In this document: positions 15,488-54,021 of the stretch, in pieces
Numbering within the stretch: the first letter of the stretch is position 1
Layout of the letters: each line of letters starts with the position of its first letter
Source of the DNA: a virus
Strand: one strand, 5' to 3'
Virus record (IMG/VR): IMGVR_UViG_3300009126_000404
Location: 32,001 to 96,000 of that record
DNA length: 64,000 nucleotides
The notes under the pieces: model-generated
What the model saw: the letters and a program-made list of their open reading frames with translations, nothing else
Told to the model about the DNA's origin: nothing
The model's database searches: none
Program-made: the position numbers and the translations under genes

Positions 15488-15488
15488 T

Positions 15489-20326: not shown

Positions 20327-20357
20327 ATAGTTATAAAGTTAGAAAAAGGAATATTAT

Positions 20358-20531: not shown

Positions 20532-20534
20532 ATG

Positions 20535-20563
20535 TTGACTAATACAAAAATTTGTATTACAAT
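20535..20563 (+). promoter_or_regulatory. Sigma70 promoter with an inverted repeat in the spacer
   Basis: TTGACT, N17, TACAAT; AATACAAA-AA-TTTGTATT at 20541-20558. Confidence 0.7.
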
Positions 20564-20631
20564 AGAAAGTAGCAGAAATGCCAAAGAAACAAAAGAAATC
20601 AATTTTACCATTAGAAGAAGGAAGTAAAAAT

Positions 20632-27639: not shown

Positions 27640-29061
27640 ATGGCAGAAAATAAATTACCAAGTGATACTTTTTGTATATTACCATGGATTCATTTAAGCA
27701 CTAGACCTGACGGAAGTATGAGAGTATGTTGTACTGCAAATGCAAGTGCTGTAGGAGCCACAAATGATAAACTATATGGTGGTAGAGTAGGAATTGTTAA
27801 AACTGATGATGGCATTCCAGCAAATCTTAATAACAGCGACTTAAACAGTTCATGGAATAATAGTTATATGCGGAATGTTCGTAACCAAATGTTAGCTGGT
27901 GGAAAACCTGCTAGTTGTTTAAAATGTTATAAAGAAGAAGCCGCAGGACATAGATCAAAAAGACAATGGGAAACAGATTATTGGATAAGAGATGGAATTG
28001 ATGTAGACGAACTTGTTAAAGAAACATACGAAGATGGGTCAACAGATAGCAAATTACGTTATATTGATATCCGTATGGGTACTAAATGCCAGCTAGGTTG
28101 TATTATGTGTAGTCCACATGATTCAAGTGGTTGGGTTAAAGATTGGAATGCATTATATCCACAAATTACAAATGAGTCATTAAAAGAAACAATGACCTGG
28201 GAAGATAAAGGTAAGCAGTTTGGTGCTAATTATAACTGGCATAAAAATAATCCTACATTTTGGACACAGTTTTACGCACAAATTCCTTACATTAGACAAT
28301 TATACTTTGCAGGTGGTGAATCAACTGTTATTGAAGAACATTACACAATACTATCTAAAGTTATTGAAATGGGTTATGCAGATCAAATTGAAGTACGTTA
28401 TAACTCAAATGGTGTTGAACTTCCTGATCGTTTACTAGAACTATGGTCACACTTCCAAAAAGTACGTTTCCATTATAGTATTGACAGCATTGGTGCAATG
28501 AATGATTATATTCGTTACCCAAGTGAATGGGAACATCAACTTGAGATGTTCAAACGTTTAGACACACAAACATCTAACAATGTAGAAGTTACAATTGCAT
28601 GTGCTGTAAATGCCTTAAACATTCATTACATTCCAGATTTCCTAAAATGGAAATTACAACATGGATTTAATAAAACAAATATGTGGCCATTTGGTGCAGG
28701 AGGTATTAACTACCACTTTGTATACTGGCCAGGACACTTAAACGTTAAGATACTTCCTAACGATTTCCTAGACAAAACAGAAGCCAAGTATGAAGAATTT
28801 ATTAAATGGTGGAAAGAGAATTGGGAACTAGGTGTTCCAAGTTGGCATAAAGGTAAAGTAGATTACCAAACATGGGAAAATGCAAGTTATGGTATTAAAC
28901 GTTTAAGAGGAATGATTAGTTTTGCTCGTAGTGAAGACTGGAGCAGACGACTTCCAGAATTTAGAGAATATATTAATAAACTAGACAAATTGCGTGGAAC
29001 AGATTTCCGTGCAACATTTCCTGATATGGCATACTTGTTAGACGAACCTGATGAAAAATAA
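27640..29061 (+). CDS. N-terminal twitch-domain radical SAM protein (1 of 15)
   Basis: FCILPW...VCC...CLKC, then CQLGCIMC, FAGGE. Confidence 0.92.
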   Translation: MAENKLPSDTFCILPWIHLSTRPDGSMRVCCTANASAVGATNDKLYGGRVGIVKTDDGIPANLNNSDLNSSWNNSYMRNVRNQMLAGGKPASCLKCYKEEAAGHRSKRQWETDYWIRDGIDVDELVKETYEDGSTDSKLRYIDIRMGTKCQLGCIMCSPHDSSGWVKDWNALYPQITNESLKETMTWEDKGKQFGANYNWHKNNPTFWTQFYAQIPYIRQLYFAGGESTVIEEHYTILSKVIEMGYADQIEVRYNSNGVELPDRLLELWSHFQKVRFHYSIDSIGAMNDYIRYPSEWEHQLEMFKRLDTQTSNNVEVTIACAVNALNIHYIPDFLKWKLQHGFNKTNMWPFGAGGINYHFVYWPGHLNVKILPNDFLDKTEAKYEEFIKWWKENWELGVPSWHKGKVDYQTWENASYGIKRLRGMISFARSEDWSRRLPEFREYINKLDKLRGTDFRATFPDMAYLLDEPDEK

Positions 29062-30295
29062 TAAAACAAACACACAATCTCTAGAAGATTTACCAACGAA
29101 AAGTTATTGCGTATTACCATGGACTGCAACAGCAATAGGAGCAGAAGGCCTAGTCGTGCCTTGTTGTAGATGGTTTTCTCAAGAAGATAGATGGATAGAT
29201 GATAATCCACCAAATATTGCAGACGGTCTTACAAACGCCAGAAACAGTGAATTTTTCCAAACAATAAGGCAACAAATGATTGACGGAGAACACCCAAGAG
29301 GTTGTAAGAGGTGTTGGGACGAAGAAGAAAAAGATGTAGGTAATAGAGCAATGCATAGAGTAGGTCAACAACAAAGATTTTCCGATGAGTCACCATATGG
29401 TAGAATAATCGAAATTACTGATAAGCCAGCCAAACTACGACATTTAGAAACTGGCATAAGTAGCCTTTGTAACTTTTCATGTGTAATGTGTATTCCGGAA
29501 AACAGTAGTATAATACATAGTATTCTAAAGCCAGGTAAAAAAATACCCAAAGGGTTTCACAAAGACAATGAAAACATTGATGATGATTTATCTGAATTAC
29601 AATTATTAAAATTAGTAGGTGGCGAACCTATGATTGAAGCGAAACACGATGAACTATTAGAAAAAATTATTGAATTAAATAATGACCCTGGAAATTTAGA
29701 AATACAGTATCATACTAATGTGAGTGTATTTCCAAGCAACAGAGTAATTAATTGTTGGAAGAAATTGAAAAAAGTTGAACTAGTGTTAAGTATAGATGGC
29801 ATTGGAAAATTAGCCACATTACAAAGACCAGGCAATTATAAGTGGCAAGATATAGAAGATACAATAAATAAATATATACAATTAACTAGTGAAGTTAACA
29901 TTGTATTTTCTACCAACGTTGTTCTTACTGCATTAAACATAGGACAGATAATAAATATATGTGAGTGGCTATATAATAAAGTAGAAAAACATACTTCAAT
30001 GGGTTTTGCTTTCCTACAACCAATTGATAAACAACCTTACTCAACTTATATAGATTTTAGAAATTTAAGCAAAGAAACAAAAGAACGAATAAAAAAAGAA
30101 TGGGCAGATTGGGAAGCCACTAATCCACCTGTATTAAACACTGTTTTAAAAGACCTACTAATAGACGCAAAAGGCTATATAGACGAAAAAGGAATTTTAA
30201 ACGAACCATTAACAAAAGAACTAATGTTAGAAAAACATCCTAATGCTAGATTATGGAAACACTTTAACGAAGATTTAACAAATTTGGAGATATAA
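29051..30295 (+). CDS. N-terminal twitch-domain radical SAM protein (2 of 15)
   Basis: YCVLPW...PCC...CKRC; CNFSCVMC; VGGEP. Confidence 0.9.
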   Translation: MKNNKTNTQSLEDLPTKSYCVLPWTATAIGAEGLVVPCCRWFSQEDRWIDDNPPNIADGLTNARNSEFFQTIRQQMIDGEHPRGCKRCWDEEEKDVGNRAMHRVGQQQRFSDESPYGRIIEITDKPAKLRHLETGISSLCNFSCVMCIPENSSIIHSILKPGKKIPKGFHKDNENIDDDLSELQLLKLVGGEPMIEAKHDELLEKIIELNNDPGNLEIQYHTNVSVFPSNRVINCWKKLKKVELVLSIDGIGKLATLQRPGNYKWQDIEDTINKYIQLTSEVNIVFSTNVVLTALNIGQIINICEWLYNKVEKHTSMGFAFLQPIDKQPYSTYIDFRNLSKETKERIKKEWADWEATNPPVLNTVLKDLLIDAKGYIDEKGILNEPLTKELMLEKHPNARLWKHFNEDLTNLEI

Positions 30296-30871
30296 ATGAA
30301 ATATTTACTAGTTGCACTTGAAACAGAGGTGCCAAACATTGAATTACCAGATGATTATACATTAATGATTACAGGCGTAGGTAAAGTAAATGCTACTGTA
30401 ATGGCTACTTTTGCAGCTCTCAACAAAGACTGCGAATGTATTATTAATTATGGAACAGCAGGAACTTTTAATCCTGATTTAGTTGGCAAACTATACAGAA
30501 TTAGCACAGTCAAACAGCGAGATATGGATGCTCGTCCAACATCACCATTAGGAATTACACCATACGAAAACACAAAATTTAATGGTGACTTGCAAATTTA
30601 CAAAGGAAGTAAATTTACATTAAGCACAGGCGATAACTTTGTAAAAGAAAAGCCTGAAATAAAAAGTGATTTCGTAGACATGGAAGGTTATGCTATCGCA
30701 AAAACAGCAGGTATGTTTAACAAGCCATGTATAATGCTAAAATATGCAAGTGACTTAGCTGATGAACAATCGCCAGAAGAATGGCAAGCCAATCAAGCCA
30801 AAGGAAAAGATATGTTTCTAGCATGGCTGTCAGATATGGAAAAGGAAATTCAAAAACTAAAAGATGAGTAA
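30296..30871 (+). CDS. mtnN: 5'-methylthioadenosine/S-adenosylhomocysteine nucleosidase (PNP_UDP family)
   Basis: GVGKVNA, INYGTAG, TGDNFV, DMEGYAIA, KYASD. Confidence 0.8.
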   Translation: MKYLLVALETEVPNIELPDDYTLMITGVGKVNATVMATFAALNKDCECIINYGTAGTFNPDLVGKLYRISTVKQRDMDARPTSPLGITPYENTKFNGDLQIYKGSKFTLSTGDNFVKEKPEIKSDFVDMEGYAIAKTAGMFNKPCIMLKYASDLADEQSPEEWQANQAKGKDMFLAWLSDMEKEIQKLKDE

Positions 30872-32126
30872 AAACGATTCAGGCTTTTGTGCATTACCAT
30901 TTGTGCAATATAGCACCTATAACGGAGGCCGTTTTAGGCTATGTTGTATGGCTAAGGAACCTAAAGAACTTGTTAATCAAGAAGAACTAGGCATAGATGG
31001 TACATGGAATCATAATTATATAAAAGATGTAAGACGTAGAATGACTGCTGGTGAGAAACTACCAGAATGTATTGAATGTCATCATTTAGAACGTAACGAC
31101 ATAATGAGCTCACGCCAATGGGAAAACAAAGTGTGGGCAGATGTTATTGACGATGTAGTAGCCAAGGCATCCGTTAATGATTGGGAGATTGATCAACCCT
31201 TACAATTTGATTTTAGACTTGGTAATTTATGCAATTTGCAGTGTCAAATGTGTAACAAAGAAGCATCTCACTTAGTGAGTGTGGAACGTGCGGCAATGGT
31301 ACAAAGCGGACTCGGAGCGAACCATCCTGATTGGGACGGCATGATTGCAGACAAAAAAGAAGCATTACTTCAACCAGGAATAGAATGGGAAAGTTTCGAA
31401 AGAATGCTACCATATGCTCGTAAGATAAAGTTAATAGGTGGTGAACCAACAGTAGCGGCTGATATGTTCAAGTTGTTAGATATTGCTACTGAAACTGGAC
31501 ATGCAGATCATATAGAATTAAGTTTTTATACAAACATTACTAATATGCAAGACAAATGGCTTAACCAGTTAGCCAAGTTTGAAAAAGTAATTGTTAATTG
31601 CTCATTGGAAGGAATGGGAGATATGAATGACTATCTAAGACCCCCTTCCAAATGGGCTTCTGTTTGGAATAACTTTGATAAGTTAGTAAAGTTTTCTGAT
31701 ACTAAAGAAGGTAAACGTATAAAGCCTCGGGTTACTACAGTAAACCAATTAACTAATGCATTACATACAACAAAATTTTGGAAGTATATGCATGATTACC
31801 AAATGACTAGTAATAGAGGTATTGGAATGAGTTCCAATCAATTAGTGGAGCCAAACTATTATAGTATGGCATATGCTCCTGATTGGTTAAAATGGGAACA
31901 ACGTGAGCAAATTTTAGAATTCCTCGACAGTATTAAAGATAGTCCACATTTTAAGCAGTACGAAGAACCTCTTATGGAAATTGTTAATTTTAGTCTTGAT
32001 CCTAAACACAAGTATGATCCTAAAGTTATACAACAATATATTAAAGTTACAGAGAATTATGATAAACATAGGGGACACGATATTAACAAAGTGTCACCAG
32101 AATTTTCTAGACTTAAAAATATTTAA
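30864..32126 (+). CDS. N-terminal twitch-domain radical SAM protein (3 of 15)
   Basis: FCALPF...LCC...CIEC; CNLQCQMC; IGGEP. Confidence 0.92.
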   Translation: MSKNDSGFCALPFVQYSTYNGGRFRLCCMAKEPKELVNQEELGIDGTWNHNYIKDVRRRMTAGEKLPECIECHHLERNDIMSSRQWENKVWADVIDDVVAKASVNDWEIDQPLQFDFRLGNLCNLQCQMCNKEASHLVSVERAAMVQSGLGANHPDWDGMIADKKEALLQPGIEWESFERMLPYARKIKLIGGEPTVAADMFKLLDIATETGHADHIELSFYTNITNMQDKWLNQLAKFEKVIVNCSLEGMGDMNDYLRPPSKWASVWNNFDKLVKFSDTKEGKRIKPRVTTVNQLTNALHTTKFWKYMHDYQMTSNRGIGMSSNQLVEPNYYSMAYAPDWLKWEQREQILEFLDSIKDSPHFKQYEEPLMEIVNFSLDPKHKYDPKVIQQYIKVTENYDKHRGHDINKVSPEFSRLKNI

Positions 32127-32943
32127 TACGTTCTGCTATACATAGCTCAGGTTTGAGCAAACTCTCATTTAATATATCAGCTTCAAAGCATTGTAACTTT
32201 GTGCCATATACAATTTGGTGTGTAATCCATTGTGCATTAAAGAACCAAATATCACCTGGATCAAATGTAATATAATGTAACGGGTGATGAAATTGATCCC
32301 ATTTCTGTTCGTTCCAAACACAACGATTACGAATTTCTGTTATAAAAGAATGTATATTTTCTTTATCAAGTTCACCTAATTTAAAGTCATCATAATATTC
32401 TTTATATAGTTGTTCTACGTCTGGACCAAATGTTAGTACTCTTGAACGTTTTTTGTCTAGTTGTACAAACATACGTATTTGTTGCTCGTTGCCAGTATGC
32501 TGTTCGTCTAGTTCATCTAAATGTAATTTATTTTCTACTAATGTATTATATCTATGACTAAGCATACGTTCACTTGTTTTATAATGTGGGAACAACATAT
32601 TAAATATTTCATTCCAGCCTTCTTGTGATTGTTTATGTTTTTTATGAAATACATCTATTTGTTCTTCAGTCCAATCACGTTCATCACGTAGTCTGTCACG
32701 TTTTTTAATATGACTATTATACCATGGCATAATCCATTTATTATCTGGAATAGTCCAATCTGGTAAGTCGTCATAGTATTCGTAGTCTAGGTTTGGTATA
32801 GTTAGATTCTTAATAACTACAGGCCAGCCGCTCTCAAAAGCAGTATACAGCCTATAATTGTCTTCTAAATCTTGGGTGTTAGCGTCGAATATATTGACGA
32901 TAAAATCATCTTTTGCTCTAATATCTTTAGCAATACGGGTCAT
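32113..32943 (-). CDS. Kdo-hydroxylase (KdoO)-like Fe/2OG oxygenase
   Basis: AFESGWPVV, LHLD (HxD), RMFVQLD..RSRV..FG, FDPGDIWFF...THQIVYG, resembling the recalled KdoO pattern. Confidence 0.55.
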   Translation of the reverse strand: MTRIAKDIRAKDDFIVNIFDANTQDLEDNYRLYTAFESGWPVVIKNLTIPNLDYEYYDDLPDWTIPDNKWIMPWYNSHIKKRDRLRDERDWTEEQIDVFHKKHKQSQEGWNEIFNMLFPHYKTSERMLSHRYNTLVENKLHLDELDEQHTGNEQQIRMFVQLDKKRSRVLTFGPDVEQLYKEYYDDFKLGELDKENIHSFITEIRNRCVWNEQKWDQFHHPLHYITFDPGDIWFFNAQWITHQIVYGTKLQCFEADILNESLLKPELCIAERIKYF

Positions 32944-32965
32944 ATAACCTCCATTAAATCTTTAG

Positions 32966-32985
32966 ATAAATACTAATATATTTAT
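32966..32985. promoter_or_regulatory. Inverted pair of ATAAATA boxes (candidate bidirectional late promoter)
   Basis: ATAAATA 32966-32972 (+) and TATTTAT 32979-32985 (-), 6 nt apart, between divergent genes. Confidence 0.55.
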
Positions 32986-33039
32986 GCAAGTAAATTCTGG
33001 GCGTCAACCATTAAATAATTCAAACATAAAAGAGAAAAT

Positions 33040-34125: not shown

Positions 34126-35225
34126 TGAACTGGTATAGACAAATACATAAACTACAAATAGACGTAACTAGTCACTGTAATGCAAGATGTGGTGCATGTA
34201 TAAGAAATATAAGTGGCGGGAAAACAAGACCTGGATTAAAACTATCTCATTTTGATCTTGATGTATGGAAAAGAATGGCAAGAGAAGATACCAAAGGTTG
34301 GTGGGTTAGACAATTAACATTAAATGGAAATTGGGGCGACCCGATGATGCACCCAGATTTAGTAGAAATGCTAGAATTTTGGATAGATCAACATCCAGAA
34401 AGTTTTATTTCAATTGCAACAAATGGAAGTATGCGTGGAACTCAATTTTGGGCAGACCTTGCTAAAGTATTAAGACAAGGTTCTCATCATAAAATTGATT
34501 TTGCTGTAGACGGAATGGAAGATACTCATCATTTATATAGAAGAAGAACCGTGTTTTCTAAATTAACAGAAAATATTAAAAGTTTCACTGACGCAGGTGG
34601 AAACGCAAATGTACAAATGACTATGTTTGAACATAACAAACATCAAATTGAAGAAGTTAAAGAATTATCAAGGCAGTTAGGAGTACGAGAGTTTGTCGCA
34701 AGAAGAAGTCACAGTGCAGAAATGCAAATTATAGATGAGGGTGAAGACTATCATATAAGTGGATATTATCCATCAAATGATAAAAATTATATTGTTGGAA
34801 CCGATAAACCGCAAATGTCAGCACGGTTTGAAGAAAATGACCATCCAGTAAGTGATAATAGAGATAGAATATGGCTAAGGGCAAATGACATATTTGAAGA
34901 ATTAAACGAAAATCATATACCAAGCAAATGTCCATGGAAGGACGAAGGTGAAGTACAAATTGATCCATGGGGTACTGTATGGCCGTGTTGTCATATAAGT
35001 TTATATGGTGGCGATAGGGCATCAGAATCTATGTCTATAGCTAGTGACTTTAGCCAAGAAGCAGAAGATGATAATTTAATTAATAAAGGTCAGAGAGATA
35101 ATAACTTACATGATAATTCGTTAAAAGATATATTAAACGGCTATTGGTTTAATGATATATTAAACAATGCAATAGAAAATGCAGATTGGAAAGTATGTAG
35201 AAAGAATTGTGGGGTGTGTAAATAA
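34125..35225 (+). CDS. Radical SAM protein with C-terminal SPASM/twitch (4 of 15)
   Basis: CNARCGAC, GNWGDP, TNG; KCPW...VWPCC...CRKNC. Confidence 0.92.
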   Translation: MNWYRQIHKLQIDVTSHCNARCGACIRNISGGKTRPGLKLSHFDLDVWKRMAREDTKGWWVRQLTLNGNWGDPMMHPDLVEMLEFWIDQHPESFISIATNGSMRGTQFWADLAKVLRQGSHHKIDFAVDGMEDTHHLYRRRTVFSKLTENIKSFTDAGGNANVQMTMFEHNKHQIEEVKELSRQLGVREFVARRSHSAEMQIIDEGEDYHISGYYPSNDKNYIVGTDKPQMSARFEENDHPVSDNRDRIWLRANDIFEELNENHIPSKCPWKDEGEVQIDPWGTVWPCCHISLYGGDRASESMSIASDFSQEAEDDNLINKGQRDNNLHDNSLKDILNGYWFNDILNNAIENADWKVCRKNCGVCK

Positions 35226-36475
35226 TGTACGTTAATCCAATGTTAAACGATACTCGCTATCCAACGTGCCTTGCACCTTGGAACGCATTGACTATTAAAT
35301 GGGGTGGTAATGTATTGCCGGACATTATCTATAATGGAAAATTTGGTAACATTACAAAACAAACATTACCTGAAATTTTGAATAGTGACGAAGCAGTAGC
35401 ATTAAGAAAGTCACACGCAGATAGAATAGTACCTAAGGCATGTTTGGCGTGTACTAAAAAAGAACAAAGCGGCAAAAGCCGTAGAATGTATTTTTGGGAT
35501 AAACTAGATGAAGATGTAAAACGTGGTAGTATTAAAAATACCGTAGACAGTAAGCCCGATATACGTTATTTAGACTTTACAATTAGTAATAAATGCAACC
35601 TAGCATGTATACATTGTAACCCATTTGTTAGCACAGGTTGGACCAAAGACGGAAAGAAATTAAACAAAGAAGCACCAGAATACTGGACTCAACAACAAAT
35701 TGGTTATCACGGTGTGGAAGATATGTCATTCCTTGATAACTTATTTGCAGACCCAGAATATTTTCGTAACTTACAGTGGGTAGCACTAAGAGGCGGCGAA
35801 CCTTTATATGATGAAAGTTGTAAAGCAATATTACAATGGTTTATTGATCAAGGACTAGCAAAAAACATTATGTTAGATATTAGTACAAATGCAACAGTAT
35901 TTGATGAAGATTTTCAAAAAATATTTAAACATTTTAAGCACATTGAATTACTTATTAGTATAGAAGCAGTTGACGAATTATATAGTGTAGTACGTGGTGG
36001 ACAATACACATTTGAAGATTTAGAAAGAAACATAGAAAAGTTTTACGAATACCCAAACATTGAAGTTGTGTTTGCCGTGACAGTTATGCTAACAAATGTA
36101 TTTGGGTTAGATAAAGTATGGAATTGGTTTAAAGAAAAACATGTACATAGAGCAAGTATAAGCATGAGCAACGTAGTAGTAAATCCTACATACCTCAATA
36201 TTGCATTCATGCCAGACGTATTAAAGTACATTATGTATGATAAATTACTACAGATTCCAGATCAAAGCATTTGGCCTAAAGGAAGTTATCATGCAGATGA
36301 AATACATTATCAAACAGGCATCCATGCTATTCGTGACGGATTACAAGTTGAAGTAGACGAAGCAGAACAAAAAAAGCAATGGAATTGGTTTGTTAAGTAT
36401 ACTGAAGACTTGGATAGATTACGTGGCACAGACACGTTTGCACTAATAAAGGAATTAAAATTATATAATGAATAA
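35225..36475 (+). CDS. N-terminal twitch-domain radical SAM protein (5 of 15)
   Basis: TCLAPW...CLAC; CNLACIHC; RGGEP. The usual CC pair is absent (VLPDI). Confidence 0.9.
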   Translation: MYVNPMLNDTRYPTCLAPWNALTIKWGGNVLPDIIYNGKFGNITKQTLPEILNSDEAVALRKSHADRIVPKACLACTKKEQSGKSRRMYFWDKLDEDVKRGSIKNTVDSKPDIRYLDFTISNKCNLACIHCNPFVSTGWTKDGKKLNKEAPEYWTQQQIGYHGVEDMSFLDNLFADPEYFRNLQWVALRGGEPLYDESCKAILQWFIDQGLAKNIMLDISTNATVFDEDFQKIFKHFKHIELLISIEAVDELYSVVRGGQYTFEDLERNIEKFYEYPNIEVVFAVTVMLTNVFGLDKVWNWFKEKHVHRASISMSNVVVNPTYLNIAFMPDVLKYIMYDKLLQIPDQSIWPKGSYHADEIHYQTGIHAIRDGLQVEVDEAEQKKQWNWFVKYTEDLDRLRGTDTFALIKELKLYNE

Positions 36476-45678: not shown

Positions 45679-46813
45679 AACATATTGCAACGAACCATGG
45701 AAAACAATTCACTATGATAATATTGGATCATTGGGACCTTGTTGTACATACAGAGGCAAAAGAGATAAAAGTCTAGAAAGCGTACAAGATTATTTAAACA
45801 GTGATTGGTTAAAAGAACTTAAACGTAAAATGCTTAATAACGAAAGAGATGAAGGTTGCTATAACTGTTGGGTTAAAGAAGATAAAGGTGAAGATAGTCA
45901 ACGTTTACAACAAAATAGAAAAGACGGCGTATTAACTGAAACAGACATAAAAAGAGTTTGGTTAAGTTTTGGAAACATATGCAATAAAAATTGCAATATA
46001 TGTAGGCCAGCTAGAAGTAGTATAATAGCAAAAGAATATAAAAAATTAGGCAGTGATCATGAGATATATTCTATAGATAAAGATCCTGCAATATTACAAA
46101 AAGATTTTAGTGGTATATATTTGGACAAATGGGAAAATTATATAGATGCATTAGACAATGCTCACACAATAAACTTAGATGGCGGCGAACCATTTTTTAC
46201 AAAGCAGTGTACAACTATATTAGAGACTCTTATTAAAAAAGGATCTACTAATAAGAAAATAAAATTCTCAACAAACGGAAGTGCAAATGAAAAACATTAC
46301 AAACTACTGAAACAATTTAAACAAGTAGATTTTGGTCTTAGCATAGATGGAATAAGAGAATTATACAGTTTAGTAAGAAGCCCACATCATTGGAATTGGT
46401 GGGAAAAACAACATAGACTAATGGAACAACAAACTAACCTAAGTTGGACTTATCTTGCAGTAGTGCATTGTTTTAACATACATCAACTACCAGAAATGAT
46501 AAGATATTTTATTAAAAATAATCCAAATACAGATTCAAGGTTTCATTTTACAACTATTGTATCAAGACCATATTTAGGTACACATATTGTTCCTAATTAT
46601 ATAATAGAACAAACAATAAAAGAACTCGACTTATTGGAAGGCCAATTACATAAAAAAGAACAAGTAAATATTAATAATGTTAGGCACCACTTAGTGTATA
46701 GTATATTAAATAAATCAACGGAAGATGAGATTAATTTTAAAAAATTTGTAGACATATTTGGTCCTATTAAAAAGTTAGATTATCAAAGTTATTTGCCATG
46801 GAGTATTAAATGA
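45671..46813 (+). CDS. N-terminal twitch-domain radical SAM protein (10 of 15)
   Basis: YCNEPW...PCC...CYNC; CNKNCNIC; DGGEP. Confidence 0.9.
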   Translation: MSKTYCNEPWKTIHYDNIGSLGPCCTYRGKRDKSLESVQDYLNSDWLKELKRKMLNNERDEGCYNCWVKEDKGEDSQRLQQNRKDGVLTETDIKRVWLSFGNICNKNCNICRPARSSIIAKEYKKLGSDHEIYSIDKDPAILQKDFSGIYLDKWENYIDALDNAHTINLDGGEPFFTKQCTTILETLIKKGSTNKKIKFSTNGSANEKHYKLLKQFKQVDFGLSIDGIRELYSLVRSPHHWNWWEKQHRLMEQQTNLSWTYLAVVHCFNIHQLPEMIRYFIKNNPNTDSRFHFTTIVSRPYLGTHIVPNYIIEQTIKELDLLEGQLHKKEQVNINNVRHHLVYSILNKSTEDEINFKKFVDIFGPIKKLDYQSYLPWSIK

Positions 46814-47376
46814 AAAGCATAATATGTACAGGAAATCCAGAATTTGGCGTAGCAAGTGCAATAGCTGAACGTTGGCCAGAAACAGAATTTGTTAGTAGAA
46901 CTAATTGGGATTACGATTTAACACAAGATAGTTATAAAAAGAAACTAGCAGAAAAGGCTCTTAATTATGACGTCTTTATTAACGGATCTGCACTATGGCA
47001 GTACCATCAAACTTTGCTACTAGATGTAGTCTATAAAACCGCCCAAACCAATCGCAAAAGACTACATATAGTATGTTTAGGTAGTACAACAGACAGAGCT
47101 ACTAAAGGCTCTGATTGGCATTATCAGCAAGAAAAGAAGGCTTTACGTAGTACAAGCAATGCATTAGGCTTAAAAAGCATATGGGCTGGTGGTCCTAAGG
47201 TTAGTTATATTACATTTGGTACATTAGAAAACAATGCACACAAACACCCTGGTCGAAAAGTAATGAAATTAAACGATGCTGTAGATATGATTGAATATGT
47301 AATTAATATGCCATATCATTTAAATGTAAATGAACTTAGCATTGACCCTATACAAACGGAGTGGCCAAATGAATAA
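46810..47376 (+). CDS. Short-chain dehydrogenase/reductase (compact)
   Basis: TGNPEFG, DVFIN, YQQEK (YxxxK). Confidence 0.7.
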   Translation: MKSIICTGNPEFGVASAIAERWPETEFVSRTNWDYDLTQDSYKKKLAEKALNYDVFINGSALWQYHQTLLLDVVYKTAQTNRKRLHIVCLGSTTDRATKGSDWHYQQEKKALRSTSNALGLKSIWAGGPKVSYITFGTLENNAHKHPGRKVMKLNDAVDMIEYVINMPYHLNVNELSIDPIQTEWPNE

Positions 47377-48196
47377 AATAGGAATATTTGGTGATAGTTT
47401 TGCTGTACCTGATGTAAGGGCGAAATGGGATGGAAATATTGTTAAGATTTCTAATGTTAATTGGATGGAATTAATAGGAGCACAAACATATGCCTATGGC
47501 GGTACTGATGTAGCATATAGTTTTTTAGAATTTGAAAAGCATCATAGTAAATATGATCAAGTTATTTTTGTATTAACTAATCCAGGCAGCAGAATAACTC
47601 TCAAACATCGCGACTTTATACTAAATTCATGTGATCAAGAGTATAGCATTAGAGCCATAGAAAGATTAAAGAAATCAGATGACTATGATCCTATACTTAA
47701 TCATATACATTTATCTTTAATTGAATGGCACAAAATGCAAACACTTGACGCTTTTGCAGAAAGAGAAACTTTATTTTGTAATTTAATGGTAGCACGAATA
47801 AAACAATTAAGACCAGATGTTAAATTTATACAAGCATTTGCTTGGAATAATATTGAACACATTGGCGACAATAAATATATTCCTTCTACTAGTTGTTTAG
47901 TTGACATTACCCATTACGAAAATAAAATATTTAATTGGGAACATCCTACATCAGAAAATAGTGGATGGTATTGCTCTGATAAAAAAGGGGATATTAGAAT
48001 TGGGCATATAACATGTGAGTCACATGTAATTTTAGCAGAACTAATTAAAAAATGGCTAAAAACTGATAAAATGTTTTTTGACTTTGATATAAAAGAATTT
48101 CATAATATTAAACCTGACGAGAAGCTATACAATACGGCTTTTCATAAAAGTTATGAAGACTGGTTAGCATATTGTAAGGAGCATAAAAATGAGTAA
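47369..48196 (+). CDS. SGNH/GDSL-like hydrolase or acyltransferase
   Basis: IGIFGDSF, YAYGGTD, DIRIGH; paralog of 15489-16199. Confidence 0.55.
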   Translation: MNKIGIFGDSFAVPDVRAKWDGNIVKISNVNWMELIGAQTYAYGGTDVAYSFLEFEKHHSKYDQVIFVLTNPGSRITLKHRDFILNSCDQEYSIRAIERLKKSDDYDPILNHIHLSLIEWHKMQTLDAFAERETLFCNLMVARIKQLRPDVKFIQAFAWNNIEHIGDNKYIPSTSCLVDITHYENKIFNWEHPTSENSGWYCSDKKGDIRIGHITCESHVILAELIKKWLKTDKMFFDFDIKEFHNIKPDEKLYNTAFHKSYEDWLAYCKEHKNE

Positions 48197-49343
48197 ATTT
48201 TGTTATATGCCTTGGAATGCAATCACGTTAACCGCTAATGGTGATATTAAACCATGTTGCCAATTTAGTAATAAAGGACGTATGCCTAATACTGAGCATA
48301 ATACAATAATGGAAAATTTTAATAGTGAACGTATGCAAGGATTACGCAAAGATTTCCTACAAGGTATAGAAAACAATGCATGTAATAGTTGTTGGGAGAG
48401 AGAAGATTTAGTAGGCCAAAGTAGACGCTTATGGTTTAACAAAAAGTTTCTCAATAATGAACCTAAGCCAACTACACATGATGTACCAAACCCTACATTC
48501 TATCAAGCAGATATTAACTTGTCAAATGTATGTAATTTAAAATGTCGTATGTGTGGAAGTTGGGCAAGTAACAGTTGGTTTGAAGAAGAATTAGCGTTAG
48601 CCAAAATAGACAAGCGTTATGAAAAGAATACACGTCCTGTTCCATTACAACAATATGAATTAGAAGATTTACGTAATATGCTACCTCATTTAAAGAAAGT
48701 AAAACGTATAGACTTTAAGGGTGGCGAACCAATGATGGCAAAACATCATAATCAATTTTTGGAATGGCTAATTGAAGAAGATATGACTGACGTAGAATTA
48801 TTCTACACTACAAATGGTACAGTACAAAATCCTAAGATTTTAAAATTATTAAGCAACTTTAAACGTGTCAGCATATGTTTCAGTATAGAAGGCACAGGTG
48901 ATTTATATAGTTATATAAGAGGTGGAAAATATACTATAGAAGATTTTGAAAACACACTAGCAGTATATGATAAATTAGAAAACGTACAAATAATGTTTAA
49001 TGTAACATTGCAAAATTATAACGTTTTCAACTTACCAGACTTGCATTTTTTCTTACATGATTTGGAAGATAAATATGATAGAGTAAGTGCAAATAACAGT
49101 TTCACTACTATCTGTAACAAACCAGCATATTTAAGTCCAATGAATTTACCCGATGATTTAAGAGATAAAGCAATTGGAAGATTATCTTTGTTTAGTGATT
49201 TTGAAAAGTTAGTTGAAAGTATGAAACAAAGAACATTTAATCCAGAGCTATGGGAAGTGTTTATTAACTTTACAAATGATTTGGATAAAATGCGAGGAGA
49301 TAGTGTAGTGAAAGCAGTACCACAACTAAAGGAACATTTTTAA
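48189..49343 (+). CDS. N-terminal twitch-domain radical SAM protein (11 of 15)
   Basis: FCYMPW...PCC...CNSC; CNLKCRMC; KGGEP. Confidence 0.92.
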   Translation: MSKFCYMPWNAITLTANGDIKPCCQFSNKGRMPNTEHNTIMENFNSERMQGLRKDFLQGIENNACNSCWEREDLVGQSRRLWFNKKFLNNEPKPTTHDVPNPTFYQADINLSNVCNLKCRMCGSWASNSWFEEELALAKIDKRYEKNTRPVPLQQYELEDLRNMLPHLKKVKRIDFKGGEPMMAKHHNQFLEWLIEEDMTDVELFYTTNGTVQNPKILKLLSNFKRVSICFSIEGTGDLYSYIRGGKYTIEDFENTLAVYDKLENVQIMFNVTLQNYNVFNLPDLHFFLHDLEDKYDRVSANNSFTTICNKPAYLSPMNLPDDLRDKAIGRLSLFSDFEKLVESMKQRTFNPELWEVFINFTNDLDKMRGDSVVKAVPQLKEHF

Positions 49344-50059
49344 TGTTAGTAGGTATAGAAGATAATTTTGCACCCAAAGACGAACTACTTCGTGTAGAAT
49401 GGAACTTGGGTAAACGTTGTAACTATAACTGTAGTTATTGTGGTAATGAATTACACAATAAAACCAGCGACCATATGAGTTGGGAAGTATACACAGGCAC
49501 AATAGATAAAATTGTGGAAGCATCTAATGGTAAGAAAATTAAAATAAGTTTTACTGGTGGTGAACCTTTTGTACATCCTAAGTTTATTGATATGCTAAAG
49601 TACGCTAAAGAAAATGGAGTGTATCGTTGCAGTGTAACTACTAATGGAAGTCCGCCTCCTAAAATATATAAGAAAGCATTAAAATATTTACATTATGTTA
49701 TAATCAGCTATCATTTCGAATTTGCATCTCACGATAAAGTTATTAATAATATTACAGGTATGTGGGAAGAAATACAAGAATACAGAGCCAAAGATCAATA
49801 CAAAGGTATGCACGTACACATTATGGCATTACCTGGGCACATGAAAGAATGGAAAGAAATTATAAACGAATTAAAAGAATGTGGAGTAGAATATACAGTT
49901 AGAAAAATTAGGCCACGTGTTAATGAAGACCGCACAGGATGGAATAAACCATATGCTGACGGTATGCTAGGGCAACATCCCAAGCATGAAGAAACTGAAA
50001 AGTTTGCTGGACAATATTATAGTGCAGAAGAAGAAAAATGGTTAAACGAAAATGTCTGA
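49343..50059 (+). CDS. Radical SAM barrel without SPASM (12 of 15); N-half of a split gene
   Basis: WNLGKRCNYNCSYC, FTGGEP, TTNG, ISYH; collinear with the N-part of 52852-54021. Confidence 0.88.
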   Translation: MLVGIEDNFAPKDELLRVEWNLGKRCNYNCSYCGNELHNKTSDHMSWEVYTGTIDKIVEASNGKKIKISFTGGEPFVHPKFIDMLKYAKENGVYRCSVTTNGSPPPKIYKKALKYLHYVIISYHFEFASHDKVINNITGMWEEIQEYRAKDQYKGMHVHIMALPGHMKEWKEIINELKECGVEYTVRKIRPRVNEDRTGWNKPYADGMLGQHPKHEETEKFAGQYYSAEEEKWLNENV

Positions 50060-51242
50060 AGATAAAGTAAGAGAGTGGTTAATGAAACCCGGTAATAATT
50101 TTTGTGCGTTGCCATTTACACATATGGCAATAGAAGCCAATGGCGATATAAGACCTTGTTGTATGGGCGATGAATTTGATTTAAACATTAGAAATAAAAC
50201 AATACAACAAGTATACAACGACCCAATAAGACTACAATTTGTAGACAGTTTTAAACGCAACGAACAACATCCTGCATGTCATCAATGTTGGAAAGATCCA
50301 GAAATAAGAACTACTTTTTCAACATCATCTGTTGCTATGGAAGTAACAAAACAAGCAATGAATGGAATAACACCTAAGCATGAATTAAAATGGTTAGAAA
50401 TTAAACCAGGAAATAGATGTAACTTAAAATGTAGAATATGTGGAGTACATAATAGTAGTACCTGGGCAAAAGATACTGCGGCAATGGAAGAGCCCAAAGT
50501 AAAGTTTAAAAACAGCGAGTCATTTAAATATACACAATCGTGTGATTGGATCGATGATCCAAAATTTTGGAATGATGTAAATCAATTAGAATCATTAGAG
50601 TACTTACATTTTATGGGTGGCGAGCCGTTTATGGTTCCTGAGCATTTTCAATTAATAGAACGTTTAGTAAACGATCCTGACATTGATACTAGTAATATTA
50701 TAATAGGATACAATACAAACGGAACATATTTTCCTAGCAAAGAAAACTTTGAACTATACAAGAATTTTAAGCAAGTAAAATTTGCAATAAGCATAGATGA
50801 TATTAATGAGAGATTTAACTATCAGCGTAAATTAGCTGAGTGGGAAGAAGTAAAAAATAATATTAAGAATTTTCAAAAATTAGATAAAAGCCAATATCTT
50901 GCACATTTGGATCCTACTATAAGTATATTTAATATATTTTATTTAAATGAGATTTGTACAGAATTTAATAATTTAGGATATTATGGTTTTACTAACCAAC
51001 GACATTTTGTAAATAGTGGTCCTGATTGTATTCATACGCTACCTCAATATATAAAAGACATTATTACAGAAAAGTATAAAGACAGTGATAACATATGGAT
51101 TAAACGAGCCGTAAACTATATGAATAGTCAAAAATCAGATTATAGCTTATGGGAGGATTTTAAAATAAAGACTAATAAATTAGATTTATTAAGAAAAGAA
51201 AACTTCCAACATACATTTAAGGAATTTTATGAGCAATTTTAA
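50052..51242 (+). CDS. N-terminal twitch-domain radical SAM protein (13 of 15)
   Basis: FCALPF...PCC...CHQC; CNLKCRIC; MGGEP. Confidence 0.92.
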   Translation: MSEDKVREWLMKPGNNFCALPFTHMAIEANGDIRPCCMGDEFDLNIRNKTIQQVYNDPIRLQFVDSFKRNEQHPACHQCWKDPEIRTTFSTSSVAMEVTKQAMNGITPKHELKWLEIKPGNRCNLKCRICGVHNSSTWAKDTAAMEEPKVKFKNSESFKYTQSCDWIDDPKFWNDVNQLESLEYLHFMGGEPFMVPEHFQLIERLVNDPDIDTSNIIIGYNTNGTYFPSKENFELYKNFKQVKFAISIDDINERFNYQRKLAEWEEVKNNIKNFQKLDKSQYLAHLDPTISIFNIFYLNEICTEFNNLGYYGFTNQRHFVNSGPDCIHTLPQYIKDIITEKYKDSDNIWIKRAVNYMNSQKSDYSLWEDFKIKTNKLDLLRKENFQHTFKEFYEQF

Positions 51243-51558
51243 AAATATTATTGTACACTATAAAGATGGTACAAGCAAAGAAGATAACGTAAACAGTGTC
51301 ATGGCACGTGATGAAAATGACTTCCGTGGTTGGGAATGTTGGGCAGGTGTACAAAATATTACTATCAGTAATACAGGTGATGTGTTTAGAGCTATATGTA
51401 AAGTAGGAGGCAAACTAGGAAACATTTATGATGGATTCGAAATGCCAAAAGAAACTATTATATGTAATAAGCCTAGATGCATATGTGCGGCAGATGTGCA
51501 ACTATCAAAAGCATTGCCAGATCATGTACATAGATTAAGAGTAGGTAAAGATGGATAA
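51229..51558 (+). CDS. Stand-alone SPASM/twitch domain; C-half of the split gene
   Basis: FRGWECWAG...GDV...C...LGNI...CNKPRCICAAD, collinear with the C-terminus of 52852-54021. Confidence 0.8.
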   Translation: MSNFKNIIVHYKDGTSKEDNVNSVMARDENDFRGWECWAGVQNITISNTGDVFRAICKVGGKLGNIYDGFEMPKETIICNKPRCICAADVQLSKALPDHVHRLRVGKDG

Positions 51559-52855
51559 TTATAAACAATTTTATGATCACGCAGTAGGTAAGTTAAAAGG
51601 TTTACCAGTAGATAAAAATACATTTTGTCCATTACCGTTTGTTCATGTAAGCACTACACCACATGGTGAAGTAAAACTATGCTGTAGATCTCGCCCACCA
51701 AAAGGAGGAAAAAATGTGAATAATCCTAATGTCAAAGATGATAACTTTGATCTTAAAGATTATTGGCATAGTGAGTATATGAATGAAATACGAGATGATC
51801 TTATATTAGGAAATAAACCACAACAATGTCAGAATTGTTGGAAGATGGAAGATATGGATATTGTTAGTCTACGATTAAACAAGCTCACTGATTTAATGGG
51901 CAATAAAACTTATATAAAAAATATAAAACATTACTTAAAGCATAGAGAAGTTGAATTTAAAATTCCTCTTATTGAACTTAAATTAAGTAATGTATGTAAT
52001 TTTAAATGTCGTATGTGCTGGCCAAAAGATAGTTCAAAATGGATGCAAGATTGGGATAAATTAAAAAAATTCTACGATAAAAAAGATCAAACCTTTATTG
52101 AAACAATTATAGATGCAAACGACTTAAGAACAACTAGAGTAATGAATTTATATGAAAAAGATGAACAATTTGTTGGACACTTAGTTGAGCTCATGGAACA
52201 TATTGAAGAACTTGAATTTGCTGGTGGCGAACCTCTAATGGATCCAATCCATTATCGTATATTAGATAGCATACCTCATCCTGAAAATGTAACTTTAAAA
52301 TATAGTACAAATCTAAGCATTATGAAAATGGGTAAACATAGTATAATAGACTTATGGAAGAAATTTAAAAGTATTAAACTCACTATTAGCATAGACGGAT
52401 ATAAGGAACTTAATACTAAAATAAGAAGAGGTTCTGATTGGGACCTGTTAAAAAAGAACATTAAACTTGTAAAAGAGAATTTAGACAATTTAGACGTTAT
52501 TAAAGGAACCACGTGTATAAGTGGAATGAATGCACAAGAATTAGGTAAAACAGCAGAAGCAATTGAGTTTGAATTAGGCATATTATGGCATACAAGCCGT
52601 ATGCAAAGCCCGGATTTCCTACATGCAAATGTTCTGAGCCCTATACAGCTGAAAGAAGGAATAGACGGCTTAAAACGGGTATTTGATAGCTTAAACACGG
52701 CGAAAAACCGCCAATCTGCTGGACGCTTTATGTTAGAAGCTCACTTAAATGGAGCTATTAGTTGGCTACAATCATGCATAGATAATAACAAACATACAGA
52801 GAAATATGAGCAATTTTTAAAGTTTAATAACACGATAGAGGATATGGATAAATGA
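51551..52855 (+). CDS. N-terminal twitch-domain radical SAM protein (14 of 15)
   Basis: FCPLPF...LCC...CQNC; CNFKCRMC; AGGEP. Confidence 0.92.
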   Translation: MDNYKQFYDHAVGKLKGLPVDKNTFCPLPFVHVSTTPHGEVKLCCRSRPPKGGKNVNNPNVKDDNFDLKDYWHSEYMNEIRDDLILGNKPQQCQNCWKMEDMDIVSLRLNKLTDLMGNKTYIKNIKHYLKHREVEFKIPLIELKLSNVCNFKCRMCWPKDSSKWMQDWDKLKKFYDKKDQTFIETIIDANDLRTTRVMNLYEKDEQFVGHLVELMEHIEELEFAGGEPLMDPIHYRILDSIPHPENVTLKYSTNLSIMKMGKHSIIDLWKKFKSIKLTISIDGYKELNTKIRRGSDWDLLKKNIKLVKENLDNLDVIKGTTCISGMNAQELGKTAEAIEFELGILWHTSRMQSPDFLHANVLSPIQLKEGIDGLKRVFDSLNTAKNRQSAGRFMLEAHLNGAISWLQSCIDNNKHTEKYEQFLKFNNTIEDMDK

Positions 52856-54021
52856 CAGATAAAGACTTAAAATGGAGTGAATACGATTTTACCGCTACAC
52901 CGTATGATGATATTGTACGAGTAGGGCAACGTACAATGCTGTACCGTGATTTATTTACAGTTAGTTGGTTGTTAGGTAGATTCTGTAATTATAAATGTTC
53001 TTATTGTTGGCCTTATGCTAGAAGTGATAGGAAAGACCATAGACCAACTAAACTTAATTTAAAAACTATTGATGAAATAAAAAGACAAGCACGTGAACGT
53101 GGTTTTAATAGTTTTCATTTTAGTTTAAGTGGAGGTGAGCCAACGTTCCATCCAGGTTATCTTGATATGCTTAAACATCTAAGCGATGATGTACACAATA
53201 CAAATTATACAAGTGTGCATATGACTTCAAACTGTAGCCGTAACATGAAATGGTTCCAAACATATGTAGAATATGCGGCTAAGTTTCACCGTGCAAGTAT
53301 TACAGCAAGTTTACATACAGAGCATGTTAATACACCTAAAAAAATGCAAGACTTTGCAGACAAGTTAATATTTTGCCAAGAACATGACGTGCAGGTTACA
53401 ATTAATCAAGTTATGGTTCCAAATTGGTTTGATAGAGATTGGGAAAATGCATTGTTCTTTCATAATCAAGGAATCAATGTAACACTTAAACCTCAATCAG
53501 ATCCTACTGCAAGTAAAATTGTAGATGGGTATACTGATGAGATGTTAAAAAGATTACATAACGGAATGCCACAACGTGGATACACAGAAGTTAAAGCAAA
53601 ACAAACACAATTAGTAAAACGTCCTAAGCCAGAATTTGAAATTGACTATGATGATGAATATAGAAAACAAAGTGCTAATGTTCCTTGGCATATGCAAATA
53701 GAATTTAGAGATAGCAAAGGTAAACCTTGGTATATGGACCAAGCAGAACGATTCAATGCTTTTAATTTTAATAACTTTAAAGGTTGGGAATGTAGTTCTG
53801 GTTATCGTAGTATAATTATTAGAGAACCCGATGGAAGTGTAAAACGTTCATACAGTTGTATGGATCAACCTTTAGGGAATATTGAAACAGGATTTAAATT
53901 GTTTGATGGCCCTACTAAATGTATAACTGGTGCTTGTGTTTCAAGTGCTGATAGTAAAATACCAAAAAGAGCACCTGGAACTAAAATGGGATTGTGGCCG
54001 GGAGATAAATCATTTGGATAA
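52852..54021 (+). CDS. Radical SAM protein with C-terminal SPASM/twitch (15 of 15)
   Basis: WLLGRFCNYKCSYC, SGGEP; GWECSSG...SC...LGNI...CITGACVSSAD. Confidence 0.92.
   Translation: MTDKDLKWSEYDFTATPYDDIVRVGQRTMLYRDLFTVSWLLGRFCNYKCSYCWPYARSDRKDHRPTKLNLKTIDEIKRQARERGFNSFHFSLSGGEPTFHPGYLDMLKHLSDDVHNTNYTSVHMTSNCSRNMKWFQTYVEYAAKFHRASITASLHTEHVNTPKKMQDFADKLIFCQEHDVQVTINQVMVPNWFDRDWENALFFHNQGINVTLKPQSDPTASKIVDGYTDEMLKRLHNGMPQRGYTEVKAKQTQLVKRPKPEFEIDYDDEYRKQSANVPWHMQIEFRDSKGKPWYMDQAERFNAFNFNNFKGWECSSGYRSIIIREPDGSVKRSYSCMDQPLGNIETGFKLFDGPTKCITGACVSSADSKIPKRAPGTKMGLWPGDKSFG

Follow-up and report, generated by a model that had tools for sequence, protein, structure and literature searches.

The DNA analysed here is a 64-kb window, positions 32001-96000 of a single IMG/VR virus record (IMGVR_UViG_3300009126_000404; 183,842 bp). 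The record is a fragment of an uncultured marine giant (jumbo) phage, has a GC content of 33% and is estimated by CheckV to represent 51% of a genome. We describe a 26-kb block at 27640-54021 of this window in which radical S-adenosylmethionine (radical SAM) genes are interleaved with genes for other enzymes. Genes are named by their start coordinates in the window; coordinates preceded by "record" refer to the whole virus record.

A dense array of N-terminal-twitch radical SAM genes

Pfam and NCBIfam scans identified 15 open reading frames (ORFs) in the block with both a CxxxCxxC motif and a match to PF04055 (Table 1), in agreement with a preliminary description, made from the sequence alone, that had counted 15 intact radical SAM genes. 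PF04055 matches all of them, with 27640 (26.2 bits) under the Pfam cut-off of 29.5. The ORF listing gives 27 overlapping or closely packed genes between 27640 and 54271; every ORF of the block is on the plus strand except 32113-32943, and the GC skew changes sign at about 54 kb. The block is only part of the radical SAM array, which reaches beyond 27640-54021: the whole record holds 26 CxxxCxxC proteins and 18 genes above the cut-off of NF033640.

NF033640 (N_Twi_rSAM, twitch domain-containing radical SAM protein) has a curated cut-off of 170 bits, and 12 of the 15 radical SAM proteins of the block score between 194 and 413.5 bits against it. These N_Twi genes start at 27640, 29051, 30864, 35225, 37366, 38498, 43407, 44437, 45647, 48189, 50052 and 51551; the radical SAM genes outside the family are 34125, 49343 and 52852. 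The preliminary description had named this family correctly and had placed a twitch domain at the N-terminus of 12 proteins. When a profile built from the record's 18 N_Twi paralogs was compared with the PDB, its positions 6-73 aligned to residues 166-256 of BtrN, which form the twitch domain of that enzyme (E about 1e-6). Because the first 70 or so positions of the profile align to the BtrN twitch domain, the N-terminal twitch is a tested homology, beyond a motif. The core of the profile finds its best PDB matches in TvgB (8VPO; PMC10878394), SkfB, anSME and CteB, with BlsE lower.

Aligned with one another, the 18 paralogs show no variation at the first twitch cysteine, the CxxC pair, the CxxxCxxC motif, GGE and a number of other core residues; 16 of them retain the central CC pair. 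The literal motif first proposed for the twitch domain, C..P[WF]...CC...CxxC, is present in 10 of the 12 block proteins and absent from two. A proposed shared C-terminal tail holds only in part: D..[RK]G occurs literally in four of the 12 and in looser form in others, and is not common to all.

The three remaining radical SAM proteins differ from one another. In 34125 the match to the SPASM model (20.5 bits) is below the cut-off, and a second CxxxCxxC lies at residue 358. The 52852 family has four invariant C-terminal cysteines (C314, C336, C357 and C362), and the small ORF 51229, with a ratio of nonsynonymous to synonymous substitution rates (dN/dS) of 0.03-0.07, resembles this C-terminal domain when the sequences are compared by eye. 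51229 is therefore a probable detached auxiliary Fe-S domain and may serve the short radical SAM protein 49343; as an Fe-S-type domain it was rejected as a candidate precursor peptide.

Old paralogs in a fixed order under purifying selection

The order of genes in the block is conserved in related jumbo phages. It recurs in 20 related IMG/VR loci, one Tara scaffold and one NCBI contig (322 kb) as 32113 (minus strand), 33040, 34125, 35225, 36468, 37366, 38498, 39988, 41274, 42668, 43407, 44437, 46810 and, further along, 52852. The variable genes are 27640-30864, 45647, 47330 and 48189-51551.

The preliminary description had called the radical SAM genes divergent paralogs, which the identity matrix and the tree bear out. 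Identity between paralogs is only 17-34%, except in two pairs at about 52% (29051, for example, is 52% identical to the copy at record 19430), while orthologues of single paralogs are mostly 60-94% identical across many marine contigs. For 35225 the syntenic orthologues are 62-94% identical; 44437 has 1313 database relatives, of which the 120 listed are 50-90% identical; for 43407 and 45647, orthologues in more distant relatives go down to about 35%. In a maximum-likelihood tree with nine relatives, each paralog that has orthologues there forms its own clade on a long stem, and paralogs found only in this record form long branches of their own. Recent tandem duplication in situ is ruled out by the low identity between paralogs and their separate orthologue clades.

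For every gene compared with two relatives, dN/dS (Nei-Gojobori) is between 0.03 and 0.38. Degenerate catalytic motifs and a dN/dS near 1, which would point to decaying genes, were not found; the motifs are intact, and decay is ruled out by both results. The paralogs are old, individually conserved and under purifying selection.

The block belongs to a phage. The family-B DNA polymerase of the record is 48% identical to its nearest isolate relatives, those of Agrobacterium phage Atu_ph07 and Sinorhizobium phage Phosso; next come jumbo phages of Vibrio, Yersinia and Escherichia with genomes of 350-380 kb; Atu_ph07, Phosso and the other phages nearest by polymerase are jumbo phages of 350-490 kb. 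The longest contigs with orthologues of the cluster genes measure about 322 and 349 kb. Because of this polymerase kinship and the size of these contigs, we take the record to be a jumbo-phage fragment and not a cellular island; a cellular island mistaken for a virus is excluded by the phage polymerase, other phage-type genes and the recurrence of the cluster on contigs of jumbo-phage size. Five contigs deposited as metagenome-assembled genomes (MAGs) of a "bacterium", Crocinitomicaceae, Rickettsiales or Chloroflexota also carry the phage-type cluster; the four checked have a GC content of 27-35%, and one of the five is 322 kb and another 349 kb long. They look like jumbo-phage contigs binned into bacterial MAGs.

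The late-like promoters suggested for the block did not hold up: the T4 late motif TATAAATA occurs four times in the window, fewer than in shuffled sequences, and never in the block, and scans for sigma-70-like promoters and for terminators gave results at chance level.

Partner enzymes interleaved with the radical SAM genes

Two partner assignments of the preliminary description, an amidinotransferase and an Fe(II)/2-oxoglutarate (2OG) oxygenase, were confirmed by profile searches. The profile of 33040 matches PDB entries from HsvA (E 3.4e-31) to AGAT (E 2.6e-22), with SxtG and StrB1 also matched; the C-terminal GGxHC is kept, H339 and C340 are invariant, and dN/dS is 0.05-0.07. The oxygenase is 42668, a clear member of PF05118.

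Other assignments stand in part. A pyridoxal phosphate (PLP) enzyme was proposed for 36468, whose match to PF00155 is above the cut-off, if weak, and in which K188 is invariant within an S-T-T-K...R motif; homologues 31-43% identical occur in 14 cellular loci of the Bdellovibrionota clusters described below. The proposed short-chain dehydrogenase/reductase (SDR) 46810 has both expected motifs, TGNPEFGVA (TGxxxGxA) and S92...Y105xxxK109, both invariant, but SDR matches in the PDB are weak (E 0.045-0.4) and the Pfam scan gave none; its orthologues are 70-90% identical. The gene named MtnN, 30296, belongs to the PF01048 superfamily but falls under every NCBIfam nucleosidase cut-off (best PRK05634, 97.5 against 129 bits); judged by its family, it probably clears the by-product of the radical SAM reactions. 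For 47330 the FGDSF motif behind its description as SGNH-like is present, but the scans gave no family match, and the gene was not found in relatives. The ABM match of 39720, a gene present in only a few relatives, is below the Pfam cut-off.

The left edge of the conserved core, 32113, we read as a divergent member of the KdoO superfamily, a kinship that does not fix 3-deoxy-D-manno-oct-2-ulosonic acid (Kdo) as its substrate. In the Atlas its features score 0.96 to Kdo hydroxylase (PF11004) clusters. An exhaustive profile search with the family found 131 relatives, and nine of the ten distant relatives tested match PF11004 only, five of these above the cut-off. The HxD...H iron triad (H141xD143...H242) is invariant. 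For 32113 itself, hmmscan and a whole-record search at E up to 10 gave no match to PF11004, and a fold model from a six-sequence alignment was poor (pLDDT 51).

The paralogs 39988 and 41274 belong to a family almost confined to viral records in the Atlas. The fold model of 41274 (pLDDT 84.5) predicts a GT-A-like N-terminal domain, GT-A being a glycosyltransferase (GT) fold, and a class I SAM-methyltransferase-like C-terminal domain: residues 10-260 match GT-A chains with VIA Z 8-10.4 (Foldseek E 2.5e-3 or weaker), and residues 260-465 match class I SAM-methyltransferases with VIA Z 8-11.7. In an alignment that includes both paralogs, G291 and D312, a Gly and an Asp typical of SAM sites, are invariant. 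PDB profile searches with the 32113, 36468 and 39988/41274 families returned nothing meaningful by sequence.

Table 1. Genes of the radical SAM block and related genes of the same window (window coordinates; N_Twi, member of NF033640).
Feature	Position (strand)	Basis
Radical SAM core, short, 210 aa	5551-6183 (+)	PF04055 37 bits
ORF with twitch-like Cys motif C..(n)..PCC, overlapping 5551	6113-6490 (+)	motif
SAM synthetase MetK, support gene outside block	9236-10333 (+)	phmmer against PDB, 6.5e-99
Radical SAM/SPASM protein, 325 aa, upstream of block	17821-18798 (+)	PF13186 41.5 bits; PF04055 34.6 bits
N_Twi paralog, 473 aa; best match to family model	27640-29061 (+)	NF033640 413.5 bits
N_Twi paralog, 414 aa	29051-30295 (+)	NF033640 223 bits
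Methylthioadenosine/S-adenosylhomocysteine (5'-deoxyadenosine) nucleosidase-type purine nucleosidase	30296-30871 (+)	PF01048 55.3 bits
N_Twi paralog, 420 aa	30864-32126 (+)	NF033640 287.6 bits
Divergent KdoO-like Fe(II)/2OG dioxygenase, 276 aa; left core edge	32113-32943 (-)	transitive homology
Amidinotransferase, HsvA/SxtG/StrB1/AGAT type, 361 aa	33040-34125 (+)	profile against PDB
Radical SAM with C-terminal SPASM-type domain, 366 aa	34125-35225 (+)	PF04055 40 bits
N_Twi paralog, 416 aa; core member	35225-36475 (+)	NF033640 253.4 bits
PLP class I/II aminotransferase-like, short, 301 aa	36468-37373 (+)	PF00155 24 bits (cut-off 19.7), 78 residues aligned
N_Twi paralog, 379 aa	37366-38505 (+)	NF033640 210.5 bits
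N_Twi paralog, 409 aa	38498-39727 (+)	NF033640 313.9 bits
ABM/DUF3291-like small protein, 93 aa	39720-40001 (+)	Pfam matches below cut-off
Two-domain protein, virus-only family, paralog 1, 428 aa	39988-41274 (+)	BLASTP to 41274, E 1e-17
Two-domain protein, virus-only family, paralog 2, 467 aa	41274-42677 (+)	fold model
Fe(II)/2OG hydroxylase, Asp/Asn beta-hydroxylase family, 256 aa	42668-43438 (+)	PF05118 49.4 bits (cut-off 22.6)
N_Twi paralog, 353 aa	43407-44468 (+)	NF033640 194 bits
N_Twi paralog, 413 aa	44437-45678 (+)	NF033640 385.4 bits
N_Twi paralog, 388 aa; variable member	45647-46813 (+)	NF033640 218.9 bits; synteny
SDR-like oxidoreductase, short, 188 aa; core member	46810-47376 (+)	motifs
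Protein with FGDSF (GDSL/SGNH-like) motif, 288 aa	47330-48196 (+)	motif only
N_Twi paralog, 384 aa	48189-49343 (+)	NF033640 300.1 bits
Radical SAM core without auxiliary domain, 238 aa	49343-50059 (+)	PF04055 64 bits; Fer4_12
N_Twi paralog, 396 aa	50052-51242 (+)	NF033640 265.2 bits
Stand-alone Cys-rich domain, 109 aa	51229-51558 (+)	weak match to C-terminal part of STM4011 radical SAM model
N_Twi paralog, 434 aa	51551-52855 (+)	NF033640 298.5 bits
Radical SAM with conserved C-terminal four-Cys domain, 389 aa; right core edge	52852-54021 (+)	PF04055 52.9 bits

Cellular counterparts in Bdellovibrionota

The system is not phage-specific, because part of it is shared with Bdellovibrionota chromosomes. 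In a scan of one genome per prokaryotic species, the 27640-type paralog has 325 relatives, the best of which (55-66% identity) are mostly from Bdellovibrionota and include genes on complete chromosomes; the isolate Bdellovibrio sp. HCB2-146 (GCA_047345725.1) is among the chromosomal carriers. The cellular clusters hold four to ten radical SAM genes each, and they share with the phage homologues of 27640, of 52852 (58-67% identical), of the radical SAM gene at record 18339 and of the PLP-like and SDR-like genes 36468 and 46810 (about 25-43% identical). In these loci the 27640 orthologue is accompanied by counterparts of the genes at record 15295, 15986 and 18339 in 21-52 of 76 cases, depending on the gene.

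In three annotated cellular loci GT2 glycosyltransferases, a PMT_2 GT-C, an acetyltransferase and FAD oxidases are interspersed among these genes. Five of the 11 GT2 genes of one genome lie within a 36-kb N_Twi block, and in a second genome two of 12 adjoin such a block. Bdellovibrionota genomes of 3-4 Mb have 7-12 N_Twi copies each, compared with 18 old paralogs on this one phage fragment. Of 121 genomes sampled from the phylum of the seed genome (taken as Bdellovibrionota), 26 were found to have the family, with up to 11 copies; the seed genome aside, it was not found among 200 genomes sampled from the class taken as Alphaproteobacteria. HCB2-146 also encodes a protein of 1959 aa with a Peptidase_S74 (tailspike/fibre chaperone) domain (L113:17278-21377); its gene lies about 6 kb from the 27640 orthologue, and the N_Twi/GT2 cluster ends about 2 kb away from it.

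Other genes of the window and the record

A second radical SAM cluster precedes the window at record 15295-23343 (locus L115); it comprises genes for proteins without assigned family at record 15295 and 15986, a Cupin_2 gene (17663), a radical SAM gene (18339) and three N_Twi genes (19430, 20963 and 22180). Within the window, 5551 and 6113 look, from their sequences, like a split pair of the form "core then twitch", and pairs of this type lie within the radical SAM array in three relatives.

Upstream of the block are genes for an 897-aa subtilase (1702-4395), a tryptophan halogenase fused to a WYL_2 domain (12007-13452), a DegP-like trypsin/PDZ protease (18897-20192) and an alginate-lyase-like protein (22909-24147). 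The window also encodes a 6-pyruvoyltetrahydropterin synthase (PTPS)/QueD protein, a short radical SAM enzyme and a thymidine kinase. The record also encodes a GT-B glycosyltransferase, a GalE-like epimerase, a Cupin_2 protein and a UDP-glucose-dehydrogenase-like protein. Three small Cys-rich proteins at record 315-500, 99272-99622 (minus strand) and 148790-149131 (minus strand), read from motifs only, resemble a rubredoxin, a 2x[4Fe-4S] ferredoxin and a 2Fe-2S ferredoxin, and are possible electron donors for the radical SAM enzymes.

An Rfam scan of the window at gathering level gave no matches. In other parts of the record that were scanned, eight tRNA genes were called, and ARAGORN predicts a permuted (two-piece) transfer-messenger RNA with the tag ANNNYEPEMAMAA at L009:18779-19209 (minus strand), that is, at about 154.8 kb of the record.

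Comparison with known systems

All 12 N_Twi genes of the block, and all 18 of the record, have the architecture of NF033640, an N-terminal Cys domain followed by the radical SAM core. BtrN, the 2-deoxy-scyllo-inosamine dehydrogenase of butirosin biosynthesis, has a twitch domain that can be aligned to the N-terminal part of N_Twi, but there it is C-terminal, and the BtrN core is not the best match of the N_Twi core. The peptide and protein maturases TvgB, SkfB, anSME and CteB likewise carry an auxiliary Fe-S domain at the C-terminus. They also adjoin a precursor gene and often use a recognition element (RRE) of the kind found in pathways to peptides that are ribosomally synthesised and modified post-translationally (RiPPs), whereas no precursor gene was found in the phage block, as the preliminary description had already noted.

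The gene set also recalls the logic of streptidine biosynthesis: 33040 matches StrB1, and a sequence of oxidation, transamination and amidination would suit the genes present. However, no inositol or 2-deoxy-scyllo-inosose synthase, kinase or other aminoglycoside gene was seen.

Arrays of radical SAM genes have been seen in phages before. Campylobacter phages CP220 and CPt10 have 11-12 radical SAM genes, five of them around a putative (glycine) amidinotransferase (Timms et al. 2010, PMC2853527). In CP220 the amidinotransferase and radical SAM genes adjoin two GT-A genes and a PAP2 phosphatase. The CP220 amidinotransferase is 24% identical to 33040, but the CP220 radical SAM proteins are not N_Twi members (core-only match, at most 31 bits), and host and phage lineage differ. 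In cyanophage S-SCSM2R the amidinotransferase adjoins KdsA/KdsB and 2OG oxygenases; its radical SAM proteins, too, are not N_Twi members. A 183-kb T4-like marine genome with 12 radical SAM genes (Nishimura et al. 2017, PMC5332604) and pelagimyophages with radical SAM cassettes in the host-recognition cluster (Zaragoza-Solas et al. 2020, PMC7029224) are, like the phage described here, marine, uncultured and large. These two reports give counts only, and the polymerase of our record is nearest to those of Atu_ph07, Phosso and other jumbo phages. None of the three reports (PMC5332604, PMC7029224 and PMC2853527) assigns a function to the cassettes. The gene family and the existence of radical SAM arrays are thus already on record, and the present system is undescribed.

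A possible tailoring pathway on a carbohydrate-type substrate

The family-level identities, intact catalytic motifs, fixed order, purifying selection and GT2-adjoining cellular counterpart are direct observations. The reading of them that we tentatively prefer, at somewhat less than even confidence, is that the block encodes one conserved, operon-like, multi-step radical tailoring pathway whose substrate would be of carbohydrate type, namely a sugar nucleotide or a sugar that is already part of a glycoconjugate. We infer the substrate class from the enzyme families, the fold of 41274, the adjacency to GT2 genes in cells and, in two cultured phages, the sugar genes that lie beside the amidinotransferase; the individual reactions, their order and the destination of the product (host envelope, virion or free compound) are proposals of the same kind. 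Sugar or amine tailoring, the theme proposed in the preliminary description, remains the best fit to the amidinotransferase, PLP-like, SDR-like, oxygenase and GT-A/methyltransferase-like genes together with the cellular GT2 genes.

In such a pathway, old and functionally distinct radical SAM enzymes (N_Twi and three other types) would work with ordinary tailoring enzymes. Radical SAM and SDR-like enzymes would carry out oxidations or rearrangements at sugar carbons, much like BtrN with its aminocyclitol substrate; the aminotransferase-like 36468 would introduce an amine, which the StrB1/HsvA-type amidinotransferase 33040 would convert to a guanidino group. The KdoO-like 32113 and the PF05118 protein 42668 could hydroxylate, and the GT-A/methyltransferase-fold proteins 39988 and 41274 could transfer or methylate. 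MetK would supply SAM and the nucleosidase 30296 would remove inhibitory 5'-deoxyadenosine, while the ferredoxin- and rubredoxin-like proteins of the phage may supply electrons.

Several observations weigh against this reading. The closest solved relatives of the N_Twi core are the peptide and protein maturases named above, and the sugar-nucleoside enzyme BlsE ranks below them when the N_Twi profile is compared with the PDB. PF05118 hydroxylases and SPASM/twitch enzymes are also frequent in RiPP pathways. Of three cellular genomes tested, two show the GT2 association clearly, but in the third it is weak. GT2 and GT-C genes are interleaved in the bona fide Bdellovibrionota clusters, whereas the amidinotransferase, the KdoO-like protein and the GT-A/methyltransferase pair of the phage were not found there, so that each half of the argument draws on genes that the other lacks. 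Pfam models detected no GT2, KdsA or KdsB in the 184 kb, which does not show that the phage lacks them, because the record is only about 51% of a genome. The GT-A-like domain of 41274 has no invariant DxD-type acidic motif, and its Z of 8-10 is middling. Finally, the link between 32113 and KdoO is transitive only, the PF11004 model giving no direct match.

Alternative substrates

Of the alternatives, modification of a peptide or protein is unlikely on balance but serious, because the closest solved cores are RiPP or protein maturases. The radical SAM enzymes would then form thioether, C-C or other cross-links, or epimerise residues, in a target encoded elsewhere in phage or host (a virion protein, a secreted peptide or a host protein), with the other enzymes acting as RiPP-style tailoring enzymes. 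Besides the ranking of TvgB (8VPO; PMC10878394), SkfB, anSME and CteB in the profile search, sub-threshold NCBIfam matches are mostly to peptide maturases, PF05118 is a family of protein and peptide hydroxylases, and a subtilase and a DegP-like protease lie upstream; a 2026 report describes a SPASM radical SAM enzyme that cross-links a Cys-rich protein (PMC13692751). However, neither the phage block and record nor the three annotated cellular clusters yielded a precursor-like small gene or a Cys-repeat protein, although small genes can be missed, and the 109-aa ORF 51229 is an Fe-S-type domain. The N-terminus of N_Twi is a twitch domain and not an RRE-type recognition element, and a small-molecule-type amidinotransferase and GT2 neighbours suit peptides poorly.

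The pathway could also yield a free small molecule, such as a guanidino aminocyclitol or an aminoglycoside-like or nucleoside-like compound, that would act during infection as an antibiotic, signal or metabolic effector and not as a surface decoration. The closest relatives of 33040 (HsvA, SxtG and StrB1) are all small-molecule enzymes, the twitch domain has a homologue in BtrN, BlsE is among the matches of the core, the PLP, SDR-like and methyltransferase-like partners suit such pathways, and no genes for polyprenyl-linked assembly or export were seen in the fragment. We nevertheless consider this outcome improbable. No exporter, resistance gene or scaffold-forming enzyme (cyclase, nonribosomal peptide synthetase or polyketide synthase) was seen either, the GT2/GT-C neighbours of the cellular counterparts indicate polymers or glycoconjugates, and we know of no small-molecule pathway with so many radical SAM steps.

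Hypermodification of DNA or of its nucleotide precursors, which would yield an elaborated 7-deazaguanine through the QueD/QueE-type neighbours or follow a thymidine route with PLP and radical SAM enzymes, seems highly improbable. The PTPS/QueD, short radical SAM and thymidine kinase genes do lie in the same window, copies of the 5551/6113-type pair lie within the array in three relatives, and known thymidine hypermodification pathways use a PLP enzyme and a radical SAM enzyme. Yet in Bdellovibrionota chromosomes the counterparts have glycosyltransferases for neighbours, the DNA hypermodification clusters known so far contain a single radical SAM enzyme against 15 here, and the block has no DNA-binding, kinase or transglycosylase genes.

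Least probable of all, and barely to be expected, is a modification of lipids, either of acyl chains of the host membrane or lipid A, comparable to Tes/GDGT-MAS, or of Kdo2-lipid A by 32113 and 42668: KdoO acts on Kdo2-lipid A and LpxO, which we take to belong to PF05118, the family of 42668, acts on lipid A, and the N_Twi profile matches GDGT-MAS (7tol) among other PDB entries, with Tes among weak NCBIfam matches, but neither of these matches is strong or stands out from many others, and we know of no lipid precedent for the amidinotransferase and PLP steps.

Returning to a carbohydrate-type substrate, one may speculate further, with little confidence, that the N_Twi family is a toolkit for radical sugar editing, in which each paralog would contribute its own C-H-activating step on a glycan or sugar nucleotide and, with the amidinotransferase, the oxygenases and the methyltransferase-like proteins, help to make a heavily altered, guanidino-bearing surface sugar of an undescribed kind. 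Such a sugar would mask or remodel an envelope or virion surface, and the chemistry would be common to jumbo phages and Bdellovibrio-like predators, both of which kill Gram-negative cells.

Significance

Radical SAM enzymes carry out chemistry that is hard to achieve by other means. To our knowledge, no characterised pathway strings together a dozen or more of them, and we know of no studied member of the N-terminal-twitch family. On this 184-kb phage fragment about one gene in ten encodes a radical SAM enzyme. Judged from the gene content, the phage clearly appears to pay for this chemistry in the infection of an aerobic marine host, since the genes are individually conserved and the phage carries its own SAM synthesis and by-product removal.

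Cultivable Bdellovibrio-like bacteria, which have a partial counterpart of the system, offer a tractable route to the product. If the substrate were a protein or peptide, the system would represent a new class of phage-driven post-translational modification. The identity of the product would probably add new enzyme reactions, and it would reveal what changes this abundant group of ocean phages makes to its host or its virion.

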